Assembly: GCF_004353825.1 (NCBI RefSeq)
Contig: NZ_SMNA01000005.1
Location: 310,001-374,000 of the forward strand
Source: Occultella glacieicola
GTDB lineage: Bacteria > Actinomycetota > Actinomycetes > Actinomycetales > Beutenbergiaceae
DNA: 64,000 nucleotides
Direction: 5' to 3'
Below are positions 7,753-61,022 of the stretch, one piece after another. Within the stretch, counting starts at the first letter, position 1. Each line of letters starts with the position of its first letter. The translations under genes and the position numbers were made by a program. Below the pieces are notes generated by a model. It was not told where the DNA came from and did not search any database. It worked only from the letters and a program-made list of their open reading frames with translations.

Positions 7753-7795
7753 GTGGTGTGATTCCGACGCACCGGGTGGCTCGCAACCGCACCAC
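7753..7795. repeat. Palindromic repeat family A, copy 1
   Basis: GTGGTGTGATTCCGA-cgcaccgggtggc-TCGCAACCGCACCAC. Confidence 0.8.
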
Positions 7796-7821
7796 AGCGG
7801 GTCAGGCATGGGCCGAGGGGA

Positions 7822-7905
7822 CCCACCCCGCTCCGCCCACCCCGCTCCACCCACCCCGCTCCGCCCACCCGGCTCCGCCCACCCCGCTCCGCCCACCCGG
7901 CCCCG
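7822..7905. repeat. Tandem repeat, 6 x 14 bp (CCCACCCCGCTCCG)
   Basis: Six consecutive units with 0-2 mismatches each. Confidence 0.9.
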
Positions 7906-7955
7906 TTCCCCCAGCGCACCGGGCCCACCGCTCCCCGCATGCGGCCCAGCCTGTT

Positions 7956-7996
7956 GTGGTGTGATTGCGAGGCACCCAGCACCTCGCAATCGCACC
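7956..7996. repeat. Palindromic repeat family A, copy 2
   Basis: GTGGTGTGATTGCGAGG-cacccagca-CCTCGCAATCGCACC. Confidence 0.8.
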
Positions 7997-8015
7997 GTTA
8001 GCGCTGAGCGGGGTC

Positions 8016-8966
8016 CTATGTGCAGCGCGGGCAAGGTTCGAGCTCGTCGGCCCAGCCGCGGTGGTGCAGGATCTCGGCGATCCACCGGGCGGTCCGGCAC
8101 GGCGTGGTGAAGGCCAGCCCGTACGTGACCCGCGCGGTCGGCGCCCCGGAGGCAGCCAGTTCGGCCAGGTCGCGGGCAGCGTCATCGTCACGTGCGGCGG
8201 CGTCGCCGTGGAAGGCCAGACCGTCGAGCTCCACCACAAGCCCGAACCGCGTGTACCTGACGTCCTGGTGGGTGCGGATCCCGAGCGACGAGCTCTCGTG
8301 CTGGCGACTCGCGCGCGGAAGCGCGTGGGCGCGCTCGACGTTGTCGCGATAGCCACGCTCGAGTACAGAGCACACGCCGTCGCGCAGGTCGTTGAGCATC
8401 GAGACGATCATCGTTCGCCCGGCAACACGTCGACGGCTGGCGAGCGCGACCAGGATCCGCTCCGGCGTGGTCCGGCGCGACTGTGCGACCCTGGCGAGCG
8501 TGGCGAAACCCGCGGCCACGTCCCCCGCGCGGATGTGCTTCGACATCTCGTCGATCGTCGCGTGCTCGGTCCGCACCCGCGGTGGCGCCCGATGCCACAG
8601 CACCCGTCGCTGGAGGTCGCTCATGCGGCGGACCTCCACGCCCTTCGGCAGCCGGAGAGTGCGGGCGCGTGCGATCGCGATCTGCACGTGCGCCGGAGCC
8701 GGACCGGGCAACGCGGAAGCGCCCGCCAACGCGGCCGGCCACGCCGTCAGCACCGCGGCCCACTCCCGCTGCCGCCGGGTCAGCGGGCCGGTGTGGTTCA
8801 CGAAGACGCCGGGATGGACGCGCCGGAGTTCGCGCCGCCGGAGCATCCGTTCGATGTCATGCAGCAGGGCACCCGCCTCGAGCAACTGCCACCGTGCGAC
8901 CACGCCGTCCTGCACCGAGAGCAGCTCCAATAGGGGCACGCGATCGAGCTCGAACCGTTCCGACAT
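8016..8966 (-). CDS. AbiEi-like N-terminal domain plus DUF559/Vsr-like endonuclease-fold protein
   Basis: QDGVVARWQL...RRVHPGVFVNHTGP N-terminus; SVLERGY and DVRYTRFGLVVELDGLAFH C-terminus. Confidence 0.8.
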   Translation of the reverse strand: MSERFELDRVPLLELLSVQDGVVARWQLLEAGALLHDIERMLRRRELRRVHPGVFVNHTGPLTRRQREWAAVLTAWPAALAGASALPGPAPAHVQIAIARARTLRLPKGVEVRRMSDLQRRVLWHRAPPRVRTEHATIDEMSKHIRAGDVAAGFATLARVAQSRRTTPERILVALASRRRVAGRTMIVSMLNDLRDGVCSVLERGYRDNVERAHALPRASRQHESSSLGIRTHQDVRYTRFGLVVELDGLAFHGDAAARDDDAARDLAELAASGAPTARVTYGLAFTTPCRTARWIAEILHHRGWADELEPCPRCT

Positions 8967-9018
8967 CGCGGCACGGTGTCACGCCTGTAGTAGCAGATGC
9001 CCGATCGCGCGCCCACCC

Positions 9019-9030
9019 CTGTGGACCGCC
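9019..9030 (-). promoter_or_regulatory. Upstream motif GGCGGTCCACAG (shared with 33842-33853)
   Basis: Identical 12-mer 52 nt upstream of the ATG at 8966, in the same orientation relative to the gene. Confidence 0.55.
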
Positions 9031-9079
9031 AGGCGTCGGAGCCACGCCTGTGCGGCACGGGTCAAGCGTCAGCGGGCGC

Positions 9080-9179
9080 TCACGGTCGCACACGCCAGGC
9101 GGCGAGCCCGGCGGGCTCACCCGCACACGCCCCGCCGCGAGCCCGGCCGGTCACCCGCACACGCCCCGCCGCGAGCGCC
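9080..9179. repeat. Degenerate tandem repeat, about 3 x 33-37 bp
   Basis: TCAC(C/G)...CGCACACGCC...GCGAGC recurs three times. Confidence 0.7.
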
Positions 9180-9218
9180 CCAGGATCGCCGCCCCGCAGC
9201 ACAGGTCGGAGCGTCAGC

Positions 9219-9259
9219 GATGTGATTCCGACGCACTGGGCACCTCGGAATCGCACCAC
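9219..9259. repeat. Palindromic repeat family A, copy 3
   Basis: GATGTGATTCCGA-cgcactgggcacc-TCGGAATCGCACCAC. Confidence 0.8.
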
Positions 9260-9348
9260 TGCGGCCCAGGCATGCGAGGGGACCACGCGAGGCGACCGCG
9301 CCCGCACGTTCCTTCCGCTCCGCGCTCGCCGCCCACCGGCCCACTGTT

Positions 9349-9389
9349 GAGGTGTGGTTCCGACGCACCGGGTACGTCGGAACCACATC
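9349..9389. repeat. Palindromic repeat family A, copy 4
   Basis: GAGGTGTGGTTCCGACG-caccgggta-CGTCGGAACCACATC. Confidence 0.8.
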
Positions 9390-20827: not shown

Positions 20828-20866
20828 GGGCCCGTGGGAACACCGAGATGGTGTCCACACGGGCCC
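20828..20866 (-). terminator. Hairpin just downstream of the repeat-peptide gene
   Basis: GGGCCCGTG...ACACC-gagat-GGTGT...CACGGGCCC, 15 nt after the stop. Confidence 0.65.
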
Positions 20867-20881
20867 CCGGGACCTCGAAGG

Positions 20882-21163
20882 TCAGATGAGTTCGTCGCCC
20901 CAGCCGTTGCGGATCAGTTCGTCACCCCAGCCGGCGCGGATCAATTCGTCGCCCCACCCGTTGCGGATCAGTTCGTCGCCCCAGCCGGCGCGGATCAGTT
21001 CGTCGCCCCACCCGTTGCGGATCAGTTCGTCGCCCCAGCCCGTGGCGACGGAACCGTCATCCTGCGTGGCGGCGATGGCGGCAGGGGCAATAGCGACAAG
21101 TCCGAGTGCGGCGGCAGCAGCGACGGCGGCGACTCGGACTCTTAAGCGGAAAGACTTCTGCAT
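20882..21163 (-). CDS. 93-aa secreted protein: Sec-type signal peptide plus six xGWGDELI(R) repeats
   Basis: AAGGAG RBS, basic N-region, Ala/Leu H-region, AIA|A cleavage-like site, in-frame 27-bp repeats, downstream hairpin. Confidence 0.8.
   Translation of the reverse strand: MQKSFRLRVRVAAVAAAAALGLVAIAPAAIAATQDDGSVATGWGDELIRNGWGDELIRAGWGDELIRNGWGDELIRAGWGDELIRNGWGDELI
20885..21043 (-). repeat. Coding tandem repeat, 6 x 27 bp
   Basis: Units encode TGWGDELIR, NGWGDELIR, AGWGDELIR, NGWGDELIR, AGWGDELIR, NGWGDELI; other differences are synonymous. Confidence 0.95.
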
Positions 21164-28286: not shown

Positions 28287-28679
28287 ATGAGCAAGCCCCA
28301 GGTACACGCACTGGTGATCGAGGACGACGACGACATCCGGCGGCTGCTGGAGGTGGTGCTGGGCCAAGCGGGGTATGAGGTCACCTCGAGCGCGACGGGA
28401 GCGGACGGGGTGCGGCTGGCCCGCGCGACGCCGCCGGACCTGATCACCCTGGACGTGGGCCTGCCTGACACGAACGGGTACGCCGTCGCCGAGACCCTGC
28501 GCACGTTCTACGGCGGCCACCTGGTCATGCTCAGCGCTCGCGCGGAGGCCTACGACGCCGAGTACGGCATGCAGGTCGGCGCTGACGCGTACCTGACGAA
28601 GCCGTTCCGGCCGCGGGCGTTCCGGGAAGCGCTCGCCTCGGTCGTGGCTGAGCCGGCCCGCGGCGTGACGGCGACCTGA
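28287..28679 (+). CDS. Stand-alone response regulator receiver domain
   Basis: IEDDDD, ITLDVGLPD, MLSA, GADAYLTKPF; no output domain. Confidence 0.88.
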   Translation: MSKPQVHALVIEDDDDIRRLLEVVLGQAGYEVTSSATGADGVRLARATPPDLITLDVGLPDTNGYAVAETLRTFYGGHLVMLSARAEAYDAEYGMQVGADAYLTKPFRPRAFREALASVVAEPARGVTAT

Positions 28680-28741
28680 CCGGGAAGCAGCGACCGGCAC
28701 CCTGCGACGCGGGCATCGCTCGCACCACCCGCTCGCCGGTC

Positions 28742-30556
28742 TCACTCGCCGCGGATATCCGCCAGCACTTGGGTACGGAGCACGTCGACCGTCTGCTCAC
28801 CCACCTCGTCGACCCTGGTGAGAAGGCGCCGTGCCTCGTCGAACCGGCCATTGGCCACGACGGCGTCCACAGCCCGCGCCACGGCCTCGAGCCGGTCCGC
28901 GCCGAGCATCGCGGCGGAGGCGGCCAGGCTGACGGCCGCGTCGCGTGCGGCGCGCTGCTCGGCCGCCGCGACCGTCTCGTTCAGGCGAGCCAGGCGCGTG
29001 GGCCACATGATCGCGAAGCCGGAGACGAACTCGAGGGCGAGGTCGTTGCGCTGGTCGAGTTCGCCCGCCAGGTCCTCGATCTGCTCCCGCCGGAGTAGCG
29101 CGAGCGAGTCCAGGACGGGCAGCGCCGGCGCGGACAGCGGTACGACGTCGTCGGCGTTTCGCTTCGTCTTCGCCCAGGCGTTACGGCCGGTGACCAGACG
29201 GGCGATCGCCCTTGGGTAGTACAGGTAGGTGAGGTAGGCGTACACCAGTGTCGCCAGGCCCAGCCCGATCCCGGCCAGAACTCCGATGCGTTCCGTGGTG
29301 ACCCTGCGGTAGATCGGTCCCCAGGATGCGTACGGCAGGATCAGGAACACCAGCAGCGCGGTGACCGCGAATGCCAGGCTGCTCTCGGAGAGGAAGTCGA
29401 ACCGTCCTTCGACGACGGCAAGGAAGGTGAGCGTCGGAAGCACGAGCAGGTTGACCATCATGATCCACGGCAACAGCATGAAGTAGTGGATCTCGAGCTG
29501 TCCGGTGAGGCGCACCATTCCCGAGCGGCGCAGCGCGGGCAGCAACGAGGCGCACTCGAGCACACCCTGTGCCCAGCGGGTCCGTTGTGTCAGCAGCCGG
29601 CGCAGGTAGGGCAGCGCCTCCTGGGAGACGTGCGCCTCCCGGACGTAGTGGGTGCGGTGCCCGAGGGTCAGCACGCCCAGGCCGAGCTCGAAGTCCTCGC
29701 ACAGCTTGCGTCCCCACGGCCGGCCGTTGGCGACGGTCAGTTCGTCGAGCACGCTGAGCCTGGTGAACTGGCCGTTGCCGCCCATGCCCACGCTGCCCGC
29801 GGCGACCCGTAGCAGTTGCATGGCCGAGTTGGTGGTGCGGAACTCCACGTCCTGCATCCGGACCAGCAACCGGCCGACTGCGTTGGCCAGTCGCCCGCGG
29901 TTCGGGAGCGGCCTGCGGTCGTTGCGGTTCTTCATCCACACCTCGACCTGCACGGCGCCGACCTTCGGGTCGCCGAACGCCTCGGGGCCGGCGACGTGCG
30001 CCAGGGTGTTGTCGGAGAGATAGCCGTCCGCGTCGAGGACCCCGATGATCACCTGGGCCCGGTCGGTACCCGCGTCGAGGCTCGCGCCAATGGTCCGGTA
30101 GGCGGCGTTCAACGCTTCGCCCTTTCCGATCCGGGCGTCCGGTCGGACCCGGGAGATCAGGTGCACGCGAGGGTCGAACTCCATCAGTGCGGCCACGATG
30201 GACGCGGTGGCGTCCTCACTGTCGTCATCGATGACCCAGACGTGCGCCAGTGGGAAGGAGGTCCGCGCGGCGGAGACGGTGGCCGCGATCACGGACTCCT
30301 CATCCCGGCAGGGGATCATCAGGTGCCACTCGAGTTGGCCCGGATCGCCGGTGGGGTTCCGAGACCGGCGGAGGTAGGCCATCACCAGCATGGAGATGTA
30401 GGTGAGCGCGCAGGCCGCCGTGATGGTGACGAGCAGAAGGGCGGCATCGCGCCATCCGTTCTCGCCCCAGCGCCCCCAGATACCCGTGGCCGAGAACAGC
30501 GTGAACGCCGCAGCGCCATACGCGCCGGCGATGACCACCATGAGCAGGTTCTTCAC
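28742..30556 (-). CDS. Membrane GT2 glycosyltransferase (processive-type motifs) with C-terminal Hpt-like domain
   Basis: IPCRDEE, IDDDSED, GKGEALN, LDADG, CEDF, QRTRW, TM helices; C-terminal AAVSLAASAAMLGADRL. Confidence 0.82.
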   Translation of the reverse strand: MKNLLMVVIAGAYGAAAFTLFSATGIWGRWGENGWRDAALLLVTITAACALTYISMLVMAYLRRSRNPTGDPGQLEWHLMIPCRDEESVIAATVSAARTSFPLAHVWVIDDDSEDATASIVAALMEFDPRVHLISRVRPDARIGKGEALNAAYRTIGASLDAGTDRAQVIIGVLDADGYLSDNTLAHVAGPEAFGDPKVGAVQVEVWMKNRNDRRPLPNRGRLANAVGRLLVRMQDVEFRTTNSAMQLLRVAAGSVGMGGNGQFTRLSVLDELTVANGRPWGRKLCEDFELGLGVLTLGHRTHYVREAHVSQEALPYLRRLLTQRTRWAQGVLECASLLPALRRSGMVRLTGQLEIHYFMLLPWIMMVNLLVLPTLTFLAVVEGRFDFLSESSLAFAVTALLVFLILPYASWGPIYRRVTTERIGVLAGIGLGLATLVYAYLTYLYYPRAIARLVTGRNAWAKTKRNADDVVPLSAPALPVLDSLALLRREQIEDLAGELDQRNDLALEFVSGFAIMWPTRLARLNETVAAAEQRAARDAAVSLAASAAMLGADRLEAVARAVDAVVANGRFDEARRLLTRVDEVGEQTVDVLRTQVLADIRGE

Positions 30557-30602
30557 GTGTTCCCCCCGGTTCGATCCTCGAACTGTTGCCGAAGGTACCC
30601 GA

Positions 30603-32264
30603 TCACGCGACGGGCAGCCTGACGCGGAAGATCGATCCCTTCCCCGGCGTGGACTCGACCGCGATGGCGCCATCGTGTGCGCTGATGATCTCCTTGCTGA
30701 TGGCCAGGCCGAGCCCCACCCCGGGGACCGCCAGATCACGGGCGTTCGGGGTACGGAAGAAGCGGGTGAACAACCGATCCACCTCCGCAGGCGACATCCC
30801 CATCCCGGTGTCCTCGATCGCCACTTCGACCTCCGAGGCCTCCGGGACGTTGCAGGTCCGCACCACCACCCGCCCGCCGGCAGGGGTGTATTTGAGCGCG
30901 TTGGTGAGAAGGTTGTCGAGCACCTGGATGATCCTCGACGGATCCACCTCCACGTTGGGCAGAGCGGCGAGGTCAGCCTCGAGGCGCACATGACGTGCTT
31001 CGAAGCCGGGTCTGGCGGAGAGGATGGCGCGCTCCACGAGCTGAGGCAGGTCTGCCGGGACTCGCGCCAGCTGCAGGTTCCCGGACGTCGCCTGCGCCTG
31101 CGAGAGAAGGTCCTCGACGATCCGCAGAACCTGGGCGCTGTTGCGCTCGACGACGTCGAGATAGTCGTCGACGTCCGCGGCCCTTGGCGTCGGATCGTCG
31201 CGGATCAGATCCAGGTAGCCGATGATCGAGGTGATCGGAGTACGCAGTTCGTGGGAGACGGAGGAAACGAACGTCTCCCGCTGCCGCATCGCGTCGGTGA
31301 GGTCGGTGATGTCGGTGAACACGACCACCGCGCCCTCACGTGCACCATCGGCGCCGACCAGCGCGCGAGCGGAGACGGATACGGCGCGCTGGGTCCCGCC
31401 GGGCGCCCCGACGTACATGATCGAGCCGGTGAAACTCTCACCGCGGATCGCACGGCGGACCGGGCGCGCCTCGAGCCCGAGGGGCGTGCTGCGGTCGCGG
31501 TGGAACAGCAGGTGCCCGGCCTCGGTGCGGTCGGAGTTCTCCGGTGGCGAGGCGAGCGCGTGGATCTCGGCCTGGGCCGGGTTGCTGATCAGGTCGTTTC
31601 CGTCCGAGTCCACCACCACGATGCCGGCGCTGAGGGCACCGATGATTCCACGCAGCAGGCGCGCCGAGCGCTCGCTCTCCTGCAGCGAGTACGCGAGCTC
31701 CTGGGCGTTGTCGGTGATCTCCCGGCGCTGTCGGCGGAACGTGCTGCGCCCCAGGACGAGCATCGTCGTGACGCCGGCGATGACCATGGGCAGCAGCATC
31801 CGGCGCACGACGGTGAAGGCGTCAACCGGGCCCAGGGTGCCGAGCGGGGCCGGGACAAGGGAGAGCGCGACGGTTGCGGCGGTCGAGATCACCACCCCCA
31901 CGACGTCGAACAGCAATGTGAGCCACAACGCCGGAAACATGCAGAGCAGGCCCAGAGCGGAGGTCTCCGCCCCACCGGTGCCGGCACAGAGTGCGATCGC
32001 AAGGAAGTCCAGGAGCGGCAGAATGGCCAGAACCTTGATCGGGGTCCGGCGCCATGGCACCAGCGCGCAGGCCACCGTCACGCCGGCGATGATGGCCACA
32101 CCGACCAGGAAACTTGGCTCGAAGAAGATCCCGGGACGGAACACGGCGATCACCGGGAACACCACCAGGACCGGCACGATGAAGATGGTCTGCTGCGTCG
32201 CCGCCCGGCGTGGCTGGTTGACGTAGAACGAGCGCCCGTAGGCACGCAACGGTGATCCCCACAC
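30603..32264 (-). CDS. Membrane sensor histidine kinase with PAS-like domain
   Basis: N-terminal TM helices, VSHELRTPIT, NLLTNALKY, EDTGMG, GVGLGLAI, GKGSIF; start uncertain. Confidence 0.9.
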   Translation of the reverse strand: MWGSPLRAYGRSFYVNQPRRAATQQTIFIVPVLVVFPVIAVFRPGIFFEPSFLVGVAIIAGVTVACALVPWRRTPIKVLAILPLLDFLAIALCAGTGGAETSALGLLCMFPALWLTLLFDVVGVVISTAATVALSLVPAPLGTLGPVDAFTVVRRMLLPMVIAGVTTMLVLGRSTFRRQRREITDNAQELAYSLQESERSARLLRGIIGALSAGIVVVDSDGNDLISNPAQAEIHALASPPENSDRTEAGHLLFHRDRSTPLGLEARPVRRAIRGESFTGSIMYVGAPGGTQRAVSVSARALVGADGAREGAVVVFTDITDLTDAMRQRETFVSSVSHELRTPITSIIGYLDLIRDDPTPRAADVDDYLDVVERNSAQVLRIVEDLLSQAQATSGNLQLARVPADLPQLVERAILSARPGFEARHVRLEADLAALPNVEVDPSRIIQVLDNLLTNALKYTPAGGRVVVRTCNVPEASEVEVAIEDTGMGMSPAEVDRLFTRFFRTPNARDLAVPGVGLGLAISKEIISAHDGAIAVESTPGKGSIFRVRLPVA

Positions 32265-32366
32265 CGGTTCAGAGTAGGGCCAGGGAGGTATCGACGCCCT
32301 ACCGGCGCCACCTCTTCCGTTGACGGTCCGACGTCGCACCCGGCGGAACGGTCCGACCGACCGGCG

Positions 32367-33572
32367 TCACACCGGCGGGACCTCCGCGGCCAGCACCGAC
32401 CAGAACGCCTCGATCACGGTCGTCGGGATCGGGGCGGCCCACGCCTCGTTCGTGAGCAGGACCGCACTGAGCCCGCGCACGGTGTCGTTGCGCCAGGCGG
32501 AGCCGAGGCCGCCGTCCCACCCGTAGTTGCCCACGACCGACAACGTCGGCACCAACGCGACTCCGACGCCCAGTCCCCAGCCGGTGGTCCCGTCCGGACT
32601 CGGGCTGCTGGCGGCGAGTTGGGCCTGCGTGAGCCGGTTCGTCGTCATCGCGGCGATACTGCCCGGCAGGAGCACGCGGGTCCCGCCGATCGCGCCGCCG
32701 TCGCGGAGCATCGCACCGAAGGTCAGGTAGTCACCCACGGTGGAGACCAGCCCGGCGTCGCCGCCCTCGAATGCCGGCGGCGCGGCCCACTGCCCGTCCG
32801 GGGAGTCGTAGACGGCGACGGTCCCAGTGCCGGGATCCGGCGGCCAGAAGCAGGCGCCGAACCGCCCGGACTGCTCCGCCGGGACACTGAAGCCGGTGTC
32901 CCGCATGCCGAGCGGCCCGAACACCCGCTCGGTCAGAACCGCACCGAGGGACGTCCCGGTGGCTCGGGCGATGAGGACCCCGAGCACCTCGGCGCCGGTG
33001 TTGTACAGCCATCGCTCCCCCGGTTGGTGCCGTAGCGGGAAGGTACCGAGGAGCGCGAGCCATTCGTCCGGCGGCAGATGTTCCTGCGGAGCCGGCGGCG
33101 CTGCGGCCAACCCGGCCTCGGCCATCGCCGTGTCCAAGGGTGTCGGTGAGCCCATCGTGGTGAAGTCCATCCCGTGTCCGAGCCGGAACGAGAACAGATC
33201 CTCGACTGTGATCGGCCGCTGTGCCGCTTCCGTCTCGCCGATTGGCCCGTCCGGGCGGAGCAGGACCCGGCGCTCCGCGAGCTCGGGCAGGAGGTCGTCG
33301 ACGGGTGCATCGAGTGCGAGAGTTCCGTCCTCGACCAACGCCAGGGCCGCGACGGCGGTGACCGGCTTGGTCATGGAACTGATCCGGTAGATGGTGTCGG
33401 TCGTCGCCGCCTGGGTGCCATCGGCGTCCAGGTGACCGAGCGCTCCGAACCGCCGCTCGCCGTCGACGTCGATGCCCCAGGTGAGCCCCGGTGGGCTGCC
33501 GCCCTCCACGATCGGGCTGAGCGCCACCGTCAGCGCTTCGGCGACGTGGTCGAGATCGATACGGTCGTTCAT
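32367..33572 (-). CDS. Serine hydrolase, beta-lactamase-like family
   Basis: RISSMTKP (SxxK), QPGERWLYN, YGWDGGLG. Confidence 0.9.
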   Translation of the reverse strand: MNDRIDLDHVAEALTVALSPIVEGGSPPGLTWGIDVDGERRFGALGHLDADGTQAATTDTIYRISSMTKPVTAVAALALVEDGTLALDAPVDDLLPELAERRVLLRPDGPIGETEAAQRPITVEDLFSFRLGHGMDFTTMGSPTPLDTAMAEAGLAAAPPAPQEHLPPDEWLALLGTFPLRHQPGERWLYNTGAEVLGVLIARATGTSLGAVLTERVFGPLGMRDTGFSVPAEQSGRFGACFWPPDPGTGTVAVYDSPDGQWAAPPAFEGGDAGLVSTVGDYLTFGAMLRDGGAIGGTRVLLPGSIAAMTTNRLTQAQLAASSPSPDGTTGWGLGVGVALVPTLSVVGNYGWDGGLGSAWRNDTVRGLSAVLLTNEAWAAPIPTTVIEAFWSVLAAEVPPV

Positions 33573-33650
33573 GGGGTCCCTTCCGATCGGTGCTCCCAGG
33601 CAGACCCGGCGCCGGCCCGGAACTCATCGCCGCAACGCGGGGTACGCTTC

Positions 33651-33689
33651 GCGAGAGTGCGGAAATGGCAACCACCACGGCGCCCTCAC
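33651..33689. repeat. Palindromic repeat family B, copy 1
   Basis: GCGAGAGTGCGGAAATGG-caa-CCACCACGGCGCCCTCAC. Confidence 0.7.
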
Positions 33690-33745
33690 CGGGTGGCGCG
33701 CCGGCACCTCGCCGCCCACCCCCGCCTGACCCGCACCCACCCTGC

Positions 33746-33784
33746 GCGAGCGTGCGGAAACGGCAACCATCACAGCACCCTCAC
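33746..33784. repeat. Palindromic repeat family B, copy 2
   Basis: GCGAGCGTGCGGAAACGG-caa-CCATCACAGCACCCTCAC. Confidence 0.7.
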
Positions 33785-33841
33785 GGCCGAGCATCACGCG
33801 CACGCGCGACGCAGTCGTCCACTCCCGTGTGCCCGATGCGG

Positions 33842-33853
33842 GGCGGTCCACAG
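33842..33853 (+). promoter_or_regulatory. Upstream motif GGCGGTCCACAG (shared with 9019-9030)
   Basis: Identical 12-mer 49 nt upstream of the ATG at 33903. Confidence 0.55.
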
Positions 33854-33902
33854 CCGGCGCCATGCTCGCGCGCCGGCTTCGCGAGCTTGCCACCCTGCTC
33901 GG

Positions 33903-34810
33903 ATGGTGCGACAGCCCGATCCGGACGTGCCCCCCGGGGTGCGACTCGGTGAACAGTTCTCCATCACCGAGGCGCGCGCACGCGGCTACACGAGGGGCCA
34001 GATCCGGCACCGTCGGGCGAGTGGGAAGTGGCAGAGCGTGGTCGGGAGGATCGTGCTGGACCGCACCCGCAGGGTCGATGACACCGAGCGCATCCGGGCG
34101 GCGGTCAGCACCTGGCCACGGGGGTGGTGGGGCTGCGGGCAGCCGCCGCGTGGTATGGGCTTCCGGTGGCGCCCGGTCCCCGGATCGAGGTGTACACCTC
34201 CGTGGCCAGGCGGCCGACGCGTCACCTGCAGCCGCTCCGCGGACGCCTTCCCGGGGCCGACATCGACTCCCGCGAGCGCCTCGGGCTTCGGGTCACGACC
34301 ATGAGGCGGACCATCCTGGACTGCCTGGCCCACCTGCCGCGCGGTGAGGCCGAACGCCTCTGGGCCTACGTGTCCAGCCGCTCCCTGCTCAGCCAGGCCC
34401 ACCTGCTGGAGGCGATCGCCGACCGCCGCGGGCATCGGGGAACCGGTCAGCTCCGGCACTTCGCCGACCTCGCGGGCCGCGGTGCCGCCAACCCGGCGGA
34501 GGTCCGCCTGCACGAGATCCTGCGGGCCGCGGGCCTGACCCAGTGGCGGGCGGGGGTGCCGGTCAAGACGCCGGACGGTCTGATCGTGGCGCGGCCGGAC
34601 GTCCTGTTCGAGCGCGAGAAGGTCGCGATCGAACTCGATGGCGCCCGAGCACACGGCCCGGACCAGTTCCAGTCGGACCGAGCGCGCCAGAACAGGTTGG
34701 TCGAGCTCGGCTACACCCCGCTGCACTTCACCTGGGCCGACCTCCGGGACCGGGCCGAGCAGGTCGTCGCGACCGTTCGTCGCACGCTCGCGCTCGCGCA
34801 GCCGGCGTGA
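33903..34810 (+). pseudogene. AbiEi-like/DUF559 endonuclease-fold protein, frameshifted at G5 run 34120-34124
   Basis: FSITEARARGYTRGQIRHRRASGKW...TWPRG in one frame; VVGLRAAAAWYGL...NPAEVRL...RPDVLF...IELDGARAH...DRARQNRL..LGYTPLHFTW in another; G6 restores the frame. Confidence 0.78.
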
Positions 34811-34831
34811 GAGTGCCGACGCGCGGGCGGG

Positions 34832-34871
34832 GTGAGCGTGCCGAAGTGGTCGCCACTTCAGCACTCTCGGC
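34832..34871. repeat. Palindromic repeat family B, copy 3
   Basis: GTGAGCGTGCCGAAGTGG-tcg-CCACTTCAGCACTCTCGGC. Confidence 0.85.
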
Positions 34872-34905
34872 ACCGGCGCGAGGGAGCCGCGCCCGCCTAC
34901 CCGGC

Positions 34906-34945
34906 GTGAGCGTGCCGAAGTGGTCGCCACTTCAGCACTCTCGGC
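34906..34945. repeat. Palindromic repeat family B, copy 4 (identical to copy 3)
   Basis: Exact 40-bp duplicate; half-copies at 34807-34819 and near 34948-34958. Confidence 0.85.
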
Positions 34946-34963
34946 GCCCGAGAGTGCGAGGTG

Positions 34964-36007
34964 TCAGGACTTGCGGAACCGCGACCACAGGTCCACGTCG
35001 GACTCGGGCTGCTTCTCACCGAGCGCGTCCTCGATCGCCTCGAGCTCGTCTCCGGAGAACTCGAGGTTGTCGAGTGCGCCGAGGCTGTCCTCGAGCTGAC
35101 CCACGCTGCTCGCCCCGATCAGGACGGAGGTCACCCGCTCGTCGCGCAGACCCCAGGCGAGCGCGAGCTGGGCCAGGCTCTGCCCGCGACCGGCAGCGAT
35201 CTCGTTGAGGGCGCGGACGGTGGCGAGGGCCTCGTCGGTGAGCAGGTCCGGGTTCAGCGACTTGTGCTGGGTGGCGCGCGACCCCTCGGGGATGCCGCCC
35301 AGGTACTTGTCCGTGAGCATGCCCTGGGCGAGCGGGGAGAACGCGATGCAGCCGGCGCCGACGTCCTCGAGAGTGTCCAGCAGGCCGTCGGTCTCGATCC
35401 ACCGGTTCAGCATCGAGTAGGACGGCTGGTGGATCAGCAGCGGGGTGCCGAGGTCGGCGAGGATCTGCGCGGCGCGGCGGGTGTCCTCCGGCGAGTAGGA
35501 CGAGATGCCCGCGTAGAGCGCCTTGCCCTGCTGCACCGCGGTGTGCAACGCCCCCATCGTCTCCTCGAGCGGCGTCGTCGCGTCGAACCGGTGCGAGTAG
35601 AAGATGTCGACGTACTCCAGGCCCATCCGAGTCAGGGACTGCTCCAGGCTGGCGAGCAAGTACTTGCGGGAGCCGCCGCCCTGCCCGTACGGGCCCGGCC
35701 ACATGTCGTAGCCCGCCTTGGAGGAGATGATCAGCTCGTCCCGGTACGGCCGGAAGTCCGCGGCCAGGTGGCGGCCGAAGTTGGCCTCCGCGGAACCGTA
35801 CGGCGGGCCGTAGTTGTTCGCCAGGTCGAAGTGGGTCACGCCGAGGTCGAACGCACGGCGCAGGATGGCCCGCTGCCGCTCCATCGGCACGTCGTCGCCG
35901 AAGTTGTGCCAGAGGCCCAGGGAGATCGCGGGCAGGTCCAGGCCGCTGCGACCGACCCGACGGTAGGTGGCGGTCTCGTAACGGTTCGGGTCAGCGGTGT
36001 ACGTCAT
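34964..36007 (-). CDS. mgrA: Aldo/keto reductase, L-glyceraldehyde 3-phosphate reductase type
   Basis: LSLG-like ISLGLWHNFG, HFDLANNYGPPYGSAE, SSKAGYDMWPGPYG, HQPSYSMLNRW. Confidence 0.9.
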   Translation of the reverse strand: MTYTADPNRYETATYRRVGRSGLDLPAISLGLWHNFGDDVPMERQRAILRRAFDLGVTHFDLANNYGPPYGSAEANFGRHLAADFRPYRDELIISSKAGYDMWPGPYGQGGGSRKYLLASLEQSLTRMGLEYVDIFYSHRFDATTPLEETMGALHTAVQQGKALYAGISSYSPEDTRRAAQILADLGTPLLIHQPSYSMLNRWIETDGLLDTLEDVGAGCIAFSPLAQGMLTDKYLGGIPEGSRATQHKSLNPDLLTDEALATVRALNEIAAGRGQSLAQLALAWGLRDERVTSVLIGASSVGQLEDSLGALDNLEFSGDELEAIEDALGEKQPESDVDLWSRFRKS

Positions 36008-55532: not shown

Positions 55533-57008
55533 ATGAGACCGGACGCTCGCCCGAACGTGCTGCTGATCATGGCTGACCAGTGGCGTGGCGACTGCCTCTC
55601 CGTCGCGGGGCATCCCACGGTGAGCACGCCGTTCCTCGACCGACTCGCGGGGCAGGGCACGCGCTACACGAAGGCGTACTCCGCGACGCCGACGTGCACC
55701 CCGGCGCGGGCATCGCTGATGACGGGGCTGCGTCCGATCACGCACGGCCGTGTCGGGTACGAGGACCACGTGCCGTGGGACTACCCGACGACGCTGGCCG
55801 GCGAGTTCACGCGGAACGGCTACCAGACGCAGGCCGTCGGCAAGATGCACGTGTTCCCGGAGCGCGCGCAGCTGGGATTCCAGAACGTCATCCTGCACTC
55901 ACCCCTGGGTATCCTCCGGTCTGCGCGCCGGCGCGGACTGGACCCAGATCTCGTCGACGACTACCTGCCCTGGCTCAGGCTGCGGCTCGGTCGGGATGCG
56001 ACCTTCTTCGACCACGGGATCGACTCCAACTCATGGGTGGCCCGGCCGTGGGACAAGCCCGAGCACCTCCACCCCACGAACTTCGTCGCCAGCGAGTCGG
56101 CCGACTTCCTGCGGCGGCGAGACTCCACGAAGCCGTTCTTCCTGTTCGCCTCGTTCAACGCCCCGCATCCACCGTACGACCCTCCGGCGTGGGCCTTCGA
56201 GCAGTACATCGACGCGGAGATGCCCGATCCGCCGGTCGGGGACTGGACGGCCGGGCTCGCCGAGTGGGCGAAGCCCTGGGATCCGACGGCGTTCGTCGGC
56301 GAGGTCTCGGACAAGACGCTCCGGCGAGCGCGAGCCGGGTATTACGGGCACATGAGCCACGTGGATTCTCAGATCAACTTCCTGCTCGAGGAGTTGGCGC
56401 ATCGCGGCCTGCGGGAGAACACGGTGATCTGTTTCCTCTCCGACCACGGCGAGATGCTCGGCGACCACCACCTGTTCCGCAAGGGATTCCCGTACGAAGG
56501 GTCGGCGCGGATCCCGCTGATCCTTCATGGTCCGGGCGTCCCCGCCGGCGAAGTGCGCGACGACGTCGTCGAGCTGGGTGACGTCATGCCCACACTGCTG
56601 GAGGCCGCGGGTCTCGGCGTCCCGGAGACTGTCGAGGGGCGCAGCTTCCTGCCGTCGACCCTCGACGCCGCCGATCCGCGGCCGTGGCTCCACGGCGAGC
56701 ACACGCTCCTGGGACAGTCCTTCCAGTGGCTCACCGACGGCCACGAGAAGTACGTCTGGTGGAGCGGGACGGGCCACGAGCAGTTTTTCGACCTCGACGC
56801 CGACCCGACCGAGTCGCACGACCTCGTCTCCTCGCCCGGTACGGAGGCACGCGTCGGGCGATGGCGCGACGTGCTCGTCGGAGTGCTCCGAGGCCGCGAG
56901 GAGGGTTTTGTCTCCGAGGGTCACTTGGTGGCCGGCCGACCTGTCCGACCGACTCTCCGCCGTCGGACCGTGCCGCGCCGGGGCGACGAGGACCCCTTGC
57001 CGGCCTGA
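55533..57008 (+). CDS. Cys-type sulfatase
   Basis: PNVLLIMADQWRGD, CTPARASLMTG, GKMH, PHPP, SDHGEMLGDH. Confidence 0.92.
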   Translation: MRPDARPNVLLIMADQWRGDCLSVAGHPTVSTPFLDRLAGQGTRYTKAYSATPTCTPARASLMTGLRPITHGRVGYEDHVPWDYPTTLAGEFTRNGYQTQAVGKMHVFPERAQLGFQNVILHSPLGILRSARRRGLDPDLVDDYLPWLRLRLGRDATFFDHGIDSNSWVARPWDKPEHLHPTNFVASESADFLRRRDSTKPFFLFASFNAPHPPYDPPAWAFEQYIDAEMPDPPVGDWTAGLAEWAKPWDPTAFVGEVSDKTLRRARAGYYGHMSHVDSQINFLLEELAHRGLRENTVICFLSDHGEMLGDHHLFRKGFPYEGSARIPLILHGPGVPAGEVRDDVVELGDVMPTLLEAAGLGVPETVEGRSFLPSTLDAADPRPWLHGEHTLLGQSFQWLTDGHEKYVWWSGTGHEQFFDLDADPTESHDLVSSPGTEARVGRWRDVLVGVLRGREEGFVSEGHLVAGRPVRPTLRRRTVPRRGDEDPLPA

Positions 57009-57097
57009 TAGCTGACCCTCACCAGCAGCGCACCTCCCGCGATGGCACGATGGAACCCGCGATGATCGCCGTCGCGAACCTCACTCGAGAGGCCACG

Positions 57098-57793
57098 ATG
57101 GAACTCCTGCTGCTGTCCAACTCCACGGCCCCTGGCCGGGCCTACCTGGAGCACGCCCGGGAAGCGATCGCCGAGACGTTCGCGGGCGTCGAGCGGGTCG
57201 GGTTCGTCCCGTTCGCGCTCGCCGACCATGACGCGTACACGGCGCAGGCGCGCCGCGGGCTCGCCTTCCTCGACGTCGAGGTGGTCGGACTGCACGAGCG
57301 CGTCCGCAGCCCGCTCGACGGGTTGGACGCCGTGTTCGTGGGCGGCGGCAACTCGTTCCGCCTGCTGGACCAGCTGCAACGGCGCGGTCTCCTCGGGGCG
57401 ATCAGGGACGCCGTCGCACGCGGCCTGCGGTACCTCGGCTCGAGCGCGGGCACGAACGTGGCGACGCCGAGCATCCGGACCACGAACGACATGCCGATCG
57501 TGGAGCCGGTCTCGTTCGAAGGGATCGGCCTGGTGCCGTTCCAGATCAACCCGCACTACCTCGACCCGGACCCGGGCTCGACGCACCAGGGCGAGACCCG
57601 CGACGAGCGCCTCCAGCAGTACCTCGAGGAGAACACCGTCCCGGTCCTCGCGATGCGCGAGGGCACCTGGTTGCGGCGCAGCGCCGACCGGCTGACGCTC
57701 GGTGGCGAGGCCACCGGCGCCCGACTGTACCGGCCGGGACTCCCGACGGCGGAGGTCACCACGGGCGCGGACCTCACCCACCTGCTGGGCTGA
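57098..57793 (+). CDS. pepE: Dipeptidase E (S51)
   Basis: LLLLSNS, VGGGNSF, GSSAG, RTTNDMPI, NPHY, HQGETR. Confidence 0.92.
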   Translation: MELLLLSNSTAPGRAYLEHAREAIAETFAGVERVGFVPFALADHDAYTAQARRGLAFLDVEVVGLHERVRSPLDGLDAVFVGGGNSFRLLDQLQRRGLLGAIRDAVARGLRYLGSSAGTNVATPSIRTTNDMPIVEPVSFEGIGLVPFQINPHYLDPDPGSTHQGETRDERLQQYLEENTVPVLAMREGTWLRRSADRLTLGGEATGARLYRPGLPTAEVTTGADLTHLLG

Positions 57794-57848
57794 GTCGGGT
57801 TGCTCACACCCCGGCCCAACAAGGGCGAGGGTGGTGGAGAATGGAAGG

Positions 57849-59504
57849 ATGCCTGATGGCCCCCTGATCGTTCAGTCCGACAAGTCCCTCCTGCTCGAGA
57901 TCGACCACGCGCTGGCCGGCCCGTGCCGCCGCGCCATCGCCCCGTTCGCCGAGCTCGAGCGCGCGCCCGAGCACATCCACACCTATCGGCTCACCCCGCT
58001 CGGCCTCTGGAACGCCCGCGCCGCCGGCCACGACGCCGAGCAGGTCATCAACACCCTGCTCGAGTACTCCCGCTACCCGGTGCCGCACAACCTGCTGGTC
58101 GACATCGCCGAGACGATGTCCCGGTACGGCCGGCTGCAGCTGACCTCCGACCCCGCGCACGGGCTGGTGCTCACCGCCACGGACGTCCCGGTGCTGGAGG
58201 AGGTGCTCAAGTCCAAGCGCACCGCCGGCCTGGTCGGCGCCCGCCTGGACGAGCGCTCGGTCGTGGTCCACCCCAGCGAACGCGGCCACCTCAAGCAGGT
58301 CCTGGTCAAGCTCGGCTGGCCCGCCGAGGACCTCGCCGGTTACGTCGACGGCGAGGCCCACGAGATCGGCCTCGACGAGGACGGCTGGTCGATGCGCACC
58401 TACCAGAACGAGGCCGTCGAGAGCTTCTGGCATGGCGGCTCCGGTGTGGTGGTGCTGCCCTGCGGTGCCGGCAAGACGATCGTCGGCGCCGGGGCGATGG
58501 CGCAGTCCGGCACGACCACCCTGATCCTGGTCACGAACACCGTGAGCGCCCGGCAGTGGCGCGACGAGCTGGTCAAGCGCACCACCCTGACCGAGGACGA
58601 GATCGGCGAGTACTCCGGCTCCCGCAAGGAGGTCAAGCCGGTCACGATCGCGACCTACCAGGTGCTGACCACCCGCCGCAAGGGCGTCTACACCCACCTG
58701 GAGCTGCTCGACGCCCGCGACTGGGGCCTGATCCTCTACGACGAGGTGCACCTGCTGCCGGCGCCGATCTTCCGGATGACGGCGGACCTGCAGGCCCGCC
58801 GCCGGCTCGGCCTGACCGCTACCCTGGTCCGCGAGGACGGCCGCGAGGACGAGGTGTTCTCCCTGATCGGGCCGAAGCGCTACGACGCCCCGTGGAAGGA
58901 CATCGAGGCGCAGGGCTACATCGCCCCGGCCGAGTGCATCGAGGTCCGCCTGGACATGCCGCACCACGCCCGGATGGCCTACGCGGTCGCCGAACCGGAG
59001 GACCGCTACCGGATGGCGGCGACGGCGAAGGGCAAGCTGGACGTGGTCCGCCAGTTGGTCGCCAAGCACGACGGCGAGCAGATCCTGATCATCGGCCAGT
59101 ACCTCGACCAGCTCGAGGAGCTGGGCGAGAAGGTCGGCGCGCCGGTGATCACCGGCGCCACCACCGTGCCGGAGCGGCAACGTCTGTTCGCGGCATTCCG
59201 CACCGGGGAGATCACCACGCTCGTGGTCAGCAAGGTCGCGAATTTCTCGATCGACCTGCCCGAGGCCGCGGTGGCGATCCAGGTGTCCGGGTCGTTCGGG
59301 TCCCGGCAGGAGGAGGCCCAGCGGCTCGGCCGGGTGATGCGACCGAAGGCGGACGGGCGCACGGCCCACTTCTACGCCGTGGTCACGCGGGACACGGTGG
59401 ACCAGGAGTTCGCCGCGCACCGGCAGCGCTTCCTCGCCGAGCAGGGCTACGCCTACACGATCATCGACGCCGAGGACCTGGCCACAGTGGAGGACGCCGG
59501 CTGA
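57849..59504 (+). CDS. DNA repair helicase XPB
   Basis: GPLIVQSDK, LPCGAGKT, DEVH, LGLTATL, QRLGR. Confidence 0.95.
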   Translation: MPDGPLIVQSDKSLLLEIDHALAGPCRRAIAPFAELERAPEHIHTYRLTPLGLWNARAAGHDAEQVINTLLEYSRYPVPHNLLVDIAETMSRYGRLQLTSDPAHGLVLTATDVPVLEEVLKSKRTAGLVGARLDERSVVVHPSERGHLKQVLVKLGWPAEDLAGYVDGEAHEIGLDEDGWSMRTYQNEAVESFWHGGSGVVVLPCGAGKTIVGAGAMAQSGTTTLILVTNTVSARQWRDELVKRTTLTEDEIGEYSGSRKEVKPVTIATYQVLTTRRKGVYTHLELLDARDWGLILYDEVHLLPAPIFRMTADLQARRRLGLTATLVREDGREDEVFSLIGPKRYDAPWKDIEAQGYIAPAECIEVRLDMPHHARMAYAVAEPEDRYRMAATAKGKLDVVRQLVAKHDGEQILIIGQYLDQLEELGEKVGAPVITGATTVPERQRLFAAFRTGEITTLVVSKVANFSIDLPEAAVAIQVSGSFGSRQEEAQRLGRVMRPKADGRTAHFYAVVTRDTVDQEFAAHRQRFLAEQGYAYTIIDAEDLATVEDAG

Positions 59505-59540
59505 CGCGACCGGGCGGCACCCCTGGGGTGGACCCGGACC

Positions 59541-61022
59541 TCACCCGATCAGGTCACGCACCCACGCGAACTCCGTGATCGGCGTCCGTCCGGGTACCAG
59601 TCCCCCGTCGAGGACGTACCCTTCCTCGCGGTCCGTCAATGCCTCCACGAGCCGCGCCCGCCAGATTGCCACCTCACCGGCACGGGTCGGGTCGGCAGCG
59701 AGGTTGCGGGTCTCCTGCGGGTCCTCGACCAGGTCGAAGAACTGCTCGAGGCCCTCGCCGGAGAGCCACACATACTTGCGGCGCCCGTCGGTGAGCCACT
59801 GCAGCGACTGCTTGAGCAGGGTGTGTTCGCCGTGCAGCACCTCCCGCCACGGCGGGGCGGAATCAGGTTCGAGCAACGGCACCAGGCTGCGACCGTCCAC
59901 CGAGTCGGGCACCGGTGCGCCGGCGAGGTCGAGCAGCGTCGGCATGATGTCCCGCAACTCGACCACCTCGTCCCGCACCACGCCACCCGGGTGCCGCGGC
60001 GAGGAGATCAGCATCGGGATCCCGGCGGAGCCCTGGTACGGGAAACCCTTGCGGTACAGGTCGTGGTCACCCATCATCTCGCCGTGATCGGAGACGAACA
60101 CGATCGTGGTGTCCCGGGCCAGGCCGTGCTCGCCCAGGGCCTCCAGGAACCTGTTGATCTGGACGTCGATATGCGCCATGTGGCCGTAGTACCCGGCCCT
60201 CGCGCGGTGATGCGTGACCGGATCCATCCGACCGACGAACGCGTCGTGGACGCCGTCGGTGCGGAACGCCTCGAGGTCGCCCGTCCAGTCCCCGACCACC
60301 GGCTCGGTGGGCTCGGCCGCGAGGTACTGCTCGAATGCCCACGACGGCGGGTCGTATGGCGGGTGCGGGCGGTGGAAGGACATGTAGAGGAAGAAGGGCA
60401 CGGTCGGGTCGCGCCGGTCCAGCCAGTCCAGCGACTCCGAGACGACCCAGTTCGTCGGGTGCAGGTGTTCGGCCTTGTCCCACGGCCGGGCAACGACGGA
60501 GTTGCAGTTCAGCCCGGTCTCGGTGTAGTCCGCCGCGGCCTGCCCGTCCTGACGGTGCAGCCAGGTCAGGTAGTCGTCCGCCGGCGCGGGACCGTTCGCG
60601 CCCCGACGCCGGGCGTGGTGCAGGTACCCGTCGTGAAGACGGACGTCGTCGAAGCCGGCGCGGGACCGCTCGGGGTAGACGTGCATCTTCCCGATCGCCT
60701 GGGTCTGGTACCCGGCGCGGGAGAGTTCTCCGGCGAGGGTGACCGGATGCGCGCGGTGGAAGGGCACCCCGTCCCGGTAGCCGACCCGACCGTGCCGCTC
60801 CTGGGACTGCCCGGTGAACAGGGCGGCCCGCGCGGGCGTACAGGTGGGGGTCGCCGAGTACGCGCTGGTGAACCTGGTGCCCGAGCGTGCGAGGGCATCC
60901 AGATGCGGGGTTCGCACCACCGGATGGCCTGCCACGGACAGGGCGTCCCCGCGCCACTGGTCCACGCAGATCAGAACGATGTTGCCCGGTCCCACGGCCC
61001 CGTCGGCCATTCTGTCGGTCAT
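59541..61022 (-). CDS. Cys-type sulfatase (paralogue of 55533-57008)
   Basis: DQWRGD, SATPTCTPARAALFTG, GKMHVYPER, SDHGEMMGDH. Confidence 0.92.
   Translation of the reverse strand: MTDRMADGAVGPGNIVLICVDQWRGDALSVAGHPVVRTPHLDALARSGTRFTSAYSATPTCTPARAALFTGQSQERHGRVGYRDGVPFHRAHPVTLAGELSRAGYQTQAIGKMHVYPERSRAGFDDVRLHDGYLHHARRRGANGPAPADDYLTWLHRQDGQAAADYTETGLNCNSVVARPWDKAEHLHPTNWVVSESLDWLDRRDPTVPFFLYMSFHRPHPPYDPPSWAFEQYLAAEPTEPVVGDWTGDLEAFRTDGVHDAFVGRMDPVTHHRARAGYYGHMAHIDVQINRFLEALGEHGLARDTTIVFVSDHGEMMGDHDLYRKGFPYQGSAGIPMLISSPRHPGGVVRDEVVELRDIMPTLLDLAGAPVPDSVDGRSLVPLLEPDSAPPWREVLHGEHTLLKQSLQWLTDGRRKYVWLSGEGLEQFFDLVEDPQETRNLAADPTRAGEVAIWRARLVEALTDREEGYVLDGGLVPGRTPITEFAWVRDLIG

Follow-up and report, generated by a model that had tools for sequence, protein, structure and literature searches.

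REPIN-RAYT systems (REPtrons) of Proteobacteria are described in the excerpted text of bioRxiv 10.1101/2021.07.10.451892 and PMC3733652 as a single gene on the chromosome with flanking copies of a short palindrome, which is also found extragenically across the genome, mostly after stop codons. Gene and repeat are paired in a lineage-specific manner, inheritance is largely vertical with rare occurrence on plasmids and phages, and in the absence of the gene the repeats are reduced in number and further decayed. The defining feature is an HUH/Y1 tyrosine transposase (PF01797), an enzyme that binds and cleaves REP hairpins as single strands. Actinobacteria are mentioned in the main text of neither source. 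EDxHD homing endonucleases such as I-Bth0305I, together with Vsr (PDB 3R3P, 1CW0, 3HRL; excerpts of PMC3239194 and PMC3424549), carry a nuclease fold with the residue set E..D..E-x-D-G..H..D and an N-terminal DNA-binding part, and I-Bth0305I is a dimer that cuts a pseudopalindrome (excerpt of PMC3239194). Type IV antitoxins of the AbiEi/Rv2827c group (PDB 6Y8Q, 1ZEL) are described in the abstract of PMC7319586 as binding inverted repeats near their own gene, and AbiEi as autoregulating through them; AbiE is a two-gene operon that includes an AbiEii/DUF1814 nucleotidyltransferase toxin.

The genome under study (G000) was analysed around a 64-kb window (C19:310001-374000), the whole stretch of DNA presented here, and feature positions are given as window positions. 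A nuclease gene framed by its own palindromes at locus B of this window is best read as a RAYT-like partnership of repeat and enzyme in which the enzyme is an unrelated nuclease. Shared with the REPIN-RAYT systems described in those excerpts are the single chromosomal gene framed by a palindrome that recurs extragenically, the lineage-specific pairing, the mostly vertical inheritance and rarity on plasmids and phages, and, over four related genomes, the lower number and greater decay of repeats without the gene, a trend that one repeat family (G) does not cleanly follow. Locus B differs in its enzyme, which by Pfam, HMM and fold searches joins an AbiEi-like part to a Vsr/PD-(D/E)XK nuclease in place of HUH/Y1; PF01797 was found in 0/4 genomes of the genus, and the control was positive in 6/14. 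No GTAG/CGTC foot of the kind described for REPIN-RAYT was seen, repeat doublets were mostly direct (17/22, with up to three mismatches allowed), seven or more paralogues per genome each had a repeat of their own, and a promoter box was held in common with uptake and recombination genes. Unlike the EDxHD homing endonucleases in the excerpted sources, the gene at locus B stands free between two intact genes, lies in no intron or intein and interrupts no host gene, and it is flanked by its putative site instead of being inserted into it. It also has no methyltransferase neighbour, and its DNA-binding part is AbiEi-like rather than of the NUMOD type. It is set apart from AbiEi/Rv2827c antitoxins by the extra nuclease domain and by repeats that lie on both sides of the gene and genome-wide. 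The AbiE operon arrangement is absent, both neighbours at locus B (a PF00144 gene and an aldo/keto reductase) being on the opposite strand, and no match to the AbiEii toxin family (PF08843) was found in this genome. Several near-identical element copies and a target-site duplication, as in insertion sequences or MITEs, were not found, gene B being single-copy and the one clean empty site, that of a B doublet, showing no duplication.

The cassette opens with two copies of repeat B in the same orientation on the plus strand (33652..33689, an imperfect palindrome of ~38 bp, and 33747..33784), which are 85% alike over 46 nt. They are followed by a degenerate first TCCAC box (33818..33824, plus strand) and, 29 nt further on, by the main DnaA-type TCCACAG box (33847..33853, plus strand), which lies 56 nt before the ATG of gene B (33903..34810, plus strand). 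A half-copy of the repeat (34807..34819, plus strand) overlaps the stop codon of gene B. Two further copies (34832..34871 and 34906..34945) are on the minus strand, inverted relative to the upstream pair and identical to each other across 40 nt, and a last half-copy (34949..34960, plus strand) is inverted relative to the end of the fourth copy. The neighbours outside the cassette, both on the minus strand, are a beta-lactamase-family (PF00144) gene at 32367..33572, also found in three sister species without the cassette, and an aldo/keto reductase at 34964..36007. The initial annotation had described two hairpins upstream and two identical 40-bp hairpins with half-copies downstream. The copies, their layout and the half-copies were recovered as described, and the downstream pair folded well (DNA-fold z -3.6 and -2.2 on the plus strand; -4.6 on the minus strand for the first copy), but the upstream copies were poor hairpins (z 0.66 and 0.94 on the plus strand; 0.12 and -2.24 on the minus strand). 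Rfam gave no match in 33000-35600 at E up to 1.

Gene B had been annotated as one DUF559-type gene. It is a predicted nuclease gene, with an AbiEi-like N-terminal part and a Vsr-like/DUF559 nuclease, but its 908 nt do not form a single open reading frame. When aligned with an intact 293-aa homologue (P0013; 55-59% identity), residues 3-68 fell in one frame and residues 69-291 in another, and the gene is thus frameshifted near 34120 in this assembly. It is present in single copy in the genome. The C-terminal piece matched DUF559 at 25 bits (cut-off 20.6), with MTES_1575 under its cut-off; full-length homologues matched AbiEi_4 in addition. A profile built from 29 family members matched 3HRL and 3R3P, and 6Y8Q (AbiEi) weakly. 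An AlphaFold model was made of the homologue P0002 (pLDDT 92), standing in for protein B. Residues 195-299 of the model matched I-Bth0305I (Z 13.7, rmsd 2.1, 95 aligned), and the model also matched Vsr (Z 11.2). The AbiEi antitoxin aligned in full, both domains included, with residues 2-190 (Z 9.8, rmsd 6.9, 178 aligned), and there was a further fold match to Rv2827c. Prediction of a P0002 homodimer scored 0.41, against a mark of 0.42. Neither P0002 nor protein A nor the C-terminal part of protein B is covered by an NCBIfam model.

Residue, flank and box counts were made without L073, L074, L069, L030 and loci with short flanks. Catalytic positions were kept in nearly all of 107 family loci (E198 in 107, D230 in 106, E241 in 102, D243 in 103, H248 in 94 and D257 in 97), and all six are present in gene B. 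The dN/dS ratio was 0.13-0.38 in 11/11 family pairs; the family genes are under purifying selection. A frameshift or stop was found in 9/107 loci. The family comprises 6929 cluster representatives at E up to 0.001, is present in 55/61 related genomes and has its named relatives among Actinomycetota; one plasmid record and no phage record were found. A search of genome contigs with P0002 returned only 7 distant loci, and scans of metagenomes gave neither a close relative of protein B nor an exact match to the repeat-B pattern. In trees made by a quick method and by FastTree, gene B was not firmly placed among its 40-47% relatives.

Seven genes of this family (A-G) were found in this genome with the family HMM, framed by six different repeat families. 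Locus A (7753..9389, minus strand) is a distant intact paralogue of locus B. Its coding sequence takes up 8040-8966 and continues in a short C-terminal tail, and the locus has a repeat of its own in four copies and a TCCACA-type box as at locus B. The repeat of locus A had been reported as dissimilar to repeat B, and so it proved, the cross score being 26 against a background of about 23; a cross score of 49 between repeats B and F was read as probably reflecting C-rich tracts in common. A repeat shared by both flanks was scored with a threshold of 40, which was exceeded at four of the seven genes (A 87, F 58, B 56, C 42). The other three scored lower (E 33, G 31, D 31) and had degenerate or one-sided copies, those at G and E being degenerate and locus D having lost its 5' end by deletion. 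Separate genome-wide repeat families were found at 13 sites for A, 4 each for C and D, 33 for F and up to 25 for G. Apparent paralogues at two more sites, C4:55751 and C5:114197, were discarded, being chance matches inside other genes.

From loci A and B, the initial annotation had proposed a general class of element in which each nuclease has its own cognate repeat, to be given up if other DUF559 paralogues lacked flanking palindromes or if the repeat were random with respect to protein clade. Neither pattern was found. In addition to the four genes in this genome, a repeat common to both flanks was present at 57/101 family loci of relatives, compared with 19/1200 ordinary genes. Among those 57 loci, the upstream flank of one locus resembled the downstream flank of another in 15/20 close, 5/37 middling and 22/1539 distant protein pairs, a comparison that includes non-independent kin and in which syntenic orthologues make up many of the close pairs. 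Paralogues in the same genome had no repeat in common in 26/29 pairs. The proposed class is thus supported at the level of sequence, with 44/101 loci under the two-flank threshold.

Repeat B is not private to the cassette. Its core is 35 bp long and of fixed length in a search that allowed variable spacing; the ends and centre are conserved, and the 6-nt segments between them are variable. There were 44 strict sites in the genome, and 66 copies in 43 clusters with up to two mismatches; a reversed-pattern control gave 0 sites. By crude gene calls, 31/43 clusters lay within 150 bp after a stop codon. Locus B was the only place in the genome with repeat-B clusters 250-2500 bp apart, that is, bracketing a gene-sized stretch. 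Selection for a hairpin in repeat B was looked for via covariation between the arms and was not seen (253 paired positions, compared with 253.7 in shuffles); arm covariation was likewise absent in repeat A and strong in repeat F (813, compared with 726 in shuffles). With arm pairing thus uneven among the families, a repeat may be recognised either as a duplex or as a hairpin. Repeat F, present at C17:404383-405651 and at 33 sites elsewhere, is palindromic over 70 bp and consists of four 12-bp units separated by 8-nt spacers; its arms covary, unlike those of A and B. The ends of repeat B are of two types genome-wide, and unlike ends were paired above chance (40/62, p = 0.005).

The history of the cassette was followed in four related genomes (G000 and the sister species G001, G002 and G003), using repeat patterns taken from G000. 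In G001 the two genes that flank locus B adjoin one another without the cassette, with about 108 bp between them; in G002 and G003 they are separated by other DNA. Copies of repeat B numbered 66 in G000, which has the near-whole gene, 15 in G003, which has a deleted remnant (69% nucleotide identity), and 9 and 4 in G002 and G001, respectively, in which gene B was not found; controls gave 0-2. The remnant in G003 is at a different site, framed by two B repeats in inverted orientation; G000 has only a B doublet there. Both deletions in this remnant (L048; G003 C32:133058-133607) stop at the inner edges of the flanking B repeats, which fits a prediction of nicks beside the repeats. Beyond the genus, 57 genomes were searched with the strict repeat-B pattern and gave no match. 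Repeat A was counted at 11, 10 and 16 copies in genomes with gene A and 6 in the genome without it, and half-units of repeat F at 45, 37 and 15 in genomes with gene F and 7 without. Counts of the repeat-G pattern (19, 0, 0 and 9 over the four genomes) depart from a clean trend with the gene: G001 has a G-clade gene with a different repeat, and G003 has G-type repeats beside a gene that has another repeat. Of the seven paralogues, five (A, C, D, F and G) occupy orthologous sites in the genus, which indicates that cassette movement is rare. At one syntenic site, the protein of G001 has diverged and its repeat is different from that of G002 and G003. One B doublet is cleanly missing in two sisters; this single clean empty site showed neither a target-site duplication nor a fixed insertion sequence.

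TCCACA was found in a 170-nt window around the start of 82/103 family loci, with 6 more in reverse, compared with 76/2791 ordinary genes. Box positions peak at 47-49 and 56-59 nt upstream of the start codon, and boxes are often paired 27-29 nt apart, a tandem spacing typical of the family and of competence promoters, to which locus B conforms with its degenerate partner. The family consensus, YYRTCCACAG, resembles 12 boxes near dnaA in this genome and the actinomycete DnaA box given in the excerpted text of PMC4285127, a DnaA box being taken as TT(G/C)TCCACA or a close variant, bound by DnaA. The box was present upstream of yraN in 23/30 loci (30 of 39 matches examined), of comF in 11/13, of comEA in 24/30 (top SLBB matches, taken as comEA; 900-nt window) and of recA in 23/30, compared with 0/30 for rpsO; downstream control windows gave 0/30, 2/13 and 3/30. 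The comF count was drawn from 16 DZR_2 loci, from which L214, L218 and L219 were dropped because the match did not start at the beginning of the domain. The recurrence of the box upstream of comEA, yraN, comF and recA across the order marks these genes as a candidate uptake/recombination regulon in its own right. The shape of the box is that of the boxes around dnaA, and it may therefore signal replication control rather than competence. The competence regulon of Micrococcus luteus is described as unknown in a 2026 paper (excerpt of PMC12849477), and DnaA is not mentioned in the main text of the M. luteus competence papers PMC8467076 and PMC12849477. In the genome under study the box was also found upstream of cpaB and of an FHA-FtsK gene. 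Sites of the candidate regulon as a whole in this genome are C1:264, C10:19185, C17:444837, C19:282315 and C16:353777, with loci L174-L249 and L295-L324 in the wider survey. DUF222 genes of this genome had a box within 1200 nt upstream of the domain in 9/12 cases, so that a second multi-copy family seems to share the promoter.

Locus B is thus read as belonging to a large family of single nuclease genes in Actinobacteria, each framed by its own palindromes, whose products would bind and nick or cut DNA at the repeat when recA and the uptake genes are on, with repair spreading the repeat and the cassette itself rarely moving (probability roughly 0.6). Palindrome framing, together with a promoter motif held in common with DNA-uptake and recombination genes, suggests that the enzymes spread palindromes during recombination. 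The AbiEi-like part would bind the cognate palindrome and the Vsr-like part would nick or cut DNA beside it; both activities are likely by analogy with AbiEi and I-Bth0305I. Host repair would then copy the palindrome to further extragenic positions and, on occasion, relocate or exchange the cassette as a whole, and we infer that the family genes are expressed together with recA and the competence genes. A counterpoint to this enzyme-spread reading is that gene B is broken although repeat B is the most abundant; as the gene is broken in this assembly, repeat B is predicted to decay from now on, as in the sister species. In a wider form of the proposal, which we hold only tentatively, these would be a second, independently evolved repeat-replicating system of Actinobacteria, in which thousands of AbiEi-Vsr nucleases, each with its own palindrome family, are tied by a DnaA-type box into an actinobacterial uptake/recombination regulon (comEA, comF, yraN-comM-dprA, cpaB and recA), with homing-like repair in natural transformation spreading or exchanging both the cassettes and the repeats. 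No description of the nuclease-palindrome pairing or of the box in competence promoters was found in a search of open-access main texts.

An alternative is a host role in DNA uptake: the protein, made with the competence genes, would recognise the palindromes dispersed over the genome as marks of its lineage and process DNA there, whether incoming or recombining, in the manner of Chi or uptake sequences, the repeats being selected or gained by biased recombination. The box shared with comEA, comF, yraN and recA, the mostly vertical inheritance under purifying selection, the near absence from plasmids and phages and the separate repeats of each lineage would all be expected of such a role. It is nevertheless unlikely, as each repeat family has only tens of copies and several families coexist in a genome, loci with a frameshift or stop and the 5'-deleted gene D occur, and the bracketing of each gene on both sides is left unexplained. 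We consider it quite improbable that the palindromes are instead operators for autorepression by the AbiEi-like part, on the model of AbiE antitoxins, the remaining copies being binding sites or the work of another enzyme. The fold match to AbiEi and Rv2827c, the autoregulation described for AbiEi in the abstract of PMC7319586 and the lack of arm covariation in repeats A and B, as duplex binding sites would give, agree with operators; copies that lie both 100-250 bp ahead of the promoter box and beyond the end of the gene, the concentration of genome-wide sites just past stop codons, the lack of a detectable AbiEii toxin in the genome and the conservation of the nuclease residues do not.

That the cassettes are dispensable islands whose flanks gather whichever REP-like repeat is active, without cognate pairing, would account for the occurrence of such repeats in many intergenic regions and for the 44/101 loci without a clear pair. 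This explanation is already largely refuted by the comparison of same-genome paralogues, which mostly share no repeat, and is now very improbable: six repeat families coexist here, yet each gene is framed by its own, and gene B has kept repeat B at two unrelated sites.

If the preferred reading, a nuclease that spreads its own palindrome through repair, is true, a very large protein family, so far unexplained, would acquire a role, and the origin of actinobacterial extragenic palindromes would be accounted for without RAYTs, the partnership of repeat and enzyme having arisen twice. Every paralogue would then be a compact nuclease with a different specificity of 35-75 bp, readable from its own flanks. 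The common promoter box makes the question of an actinobacterial competence regulon testable.

Several variants of the framing were noted. Flanking repeats at L008, L009, L010, L012, L075 and L076 (genus g9) and at L016 are tandem arrays of 20-40 bp units rather than simple palindromes; the arrays are inverted across the gene at the first six loci and direct at L016. At L098 (G159), which encodes a protein 43% identical to protein B, the framing palindrome has the outer 12-14 bp of repeat B and a different, longer centre. Within the window, a 27-bp unit is tandemly repeated in coding sequence at 20858-21067, and 55998-60533 contains two paralogous stretches of gene length, inverted and 71-73% alike. 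A block of genes at 28300-32340 (response regulator, glycosyltransferase-HPt fusion and histidine kinase, named from their translations) lies between a gene resembling UDP-glucose dehydrogenase, also named from its translation, and the PF00144 gene next to locus B. These two flanking genes are adjacent in the three sisters, and a repeat-B copy is present in the gap in two of them.
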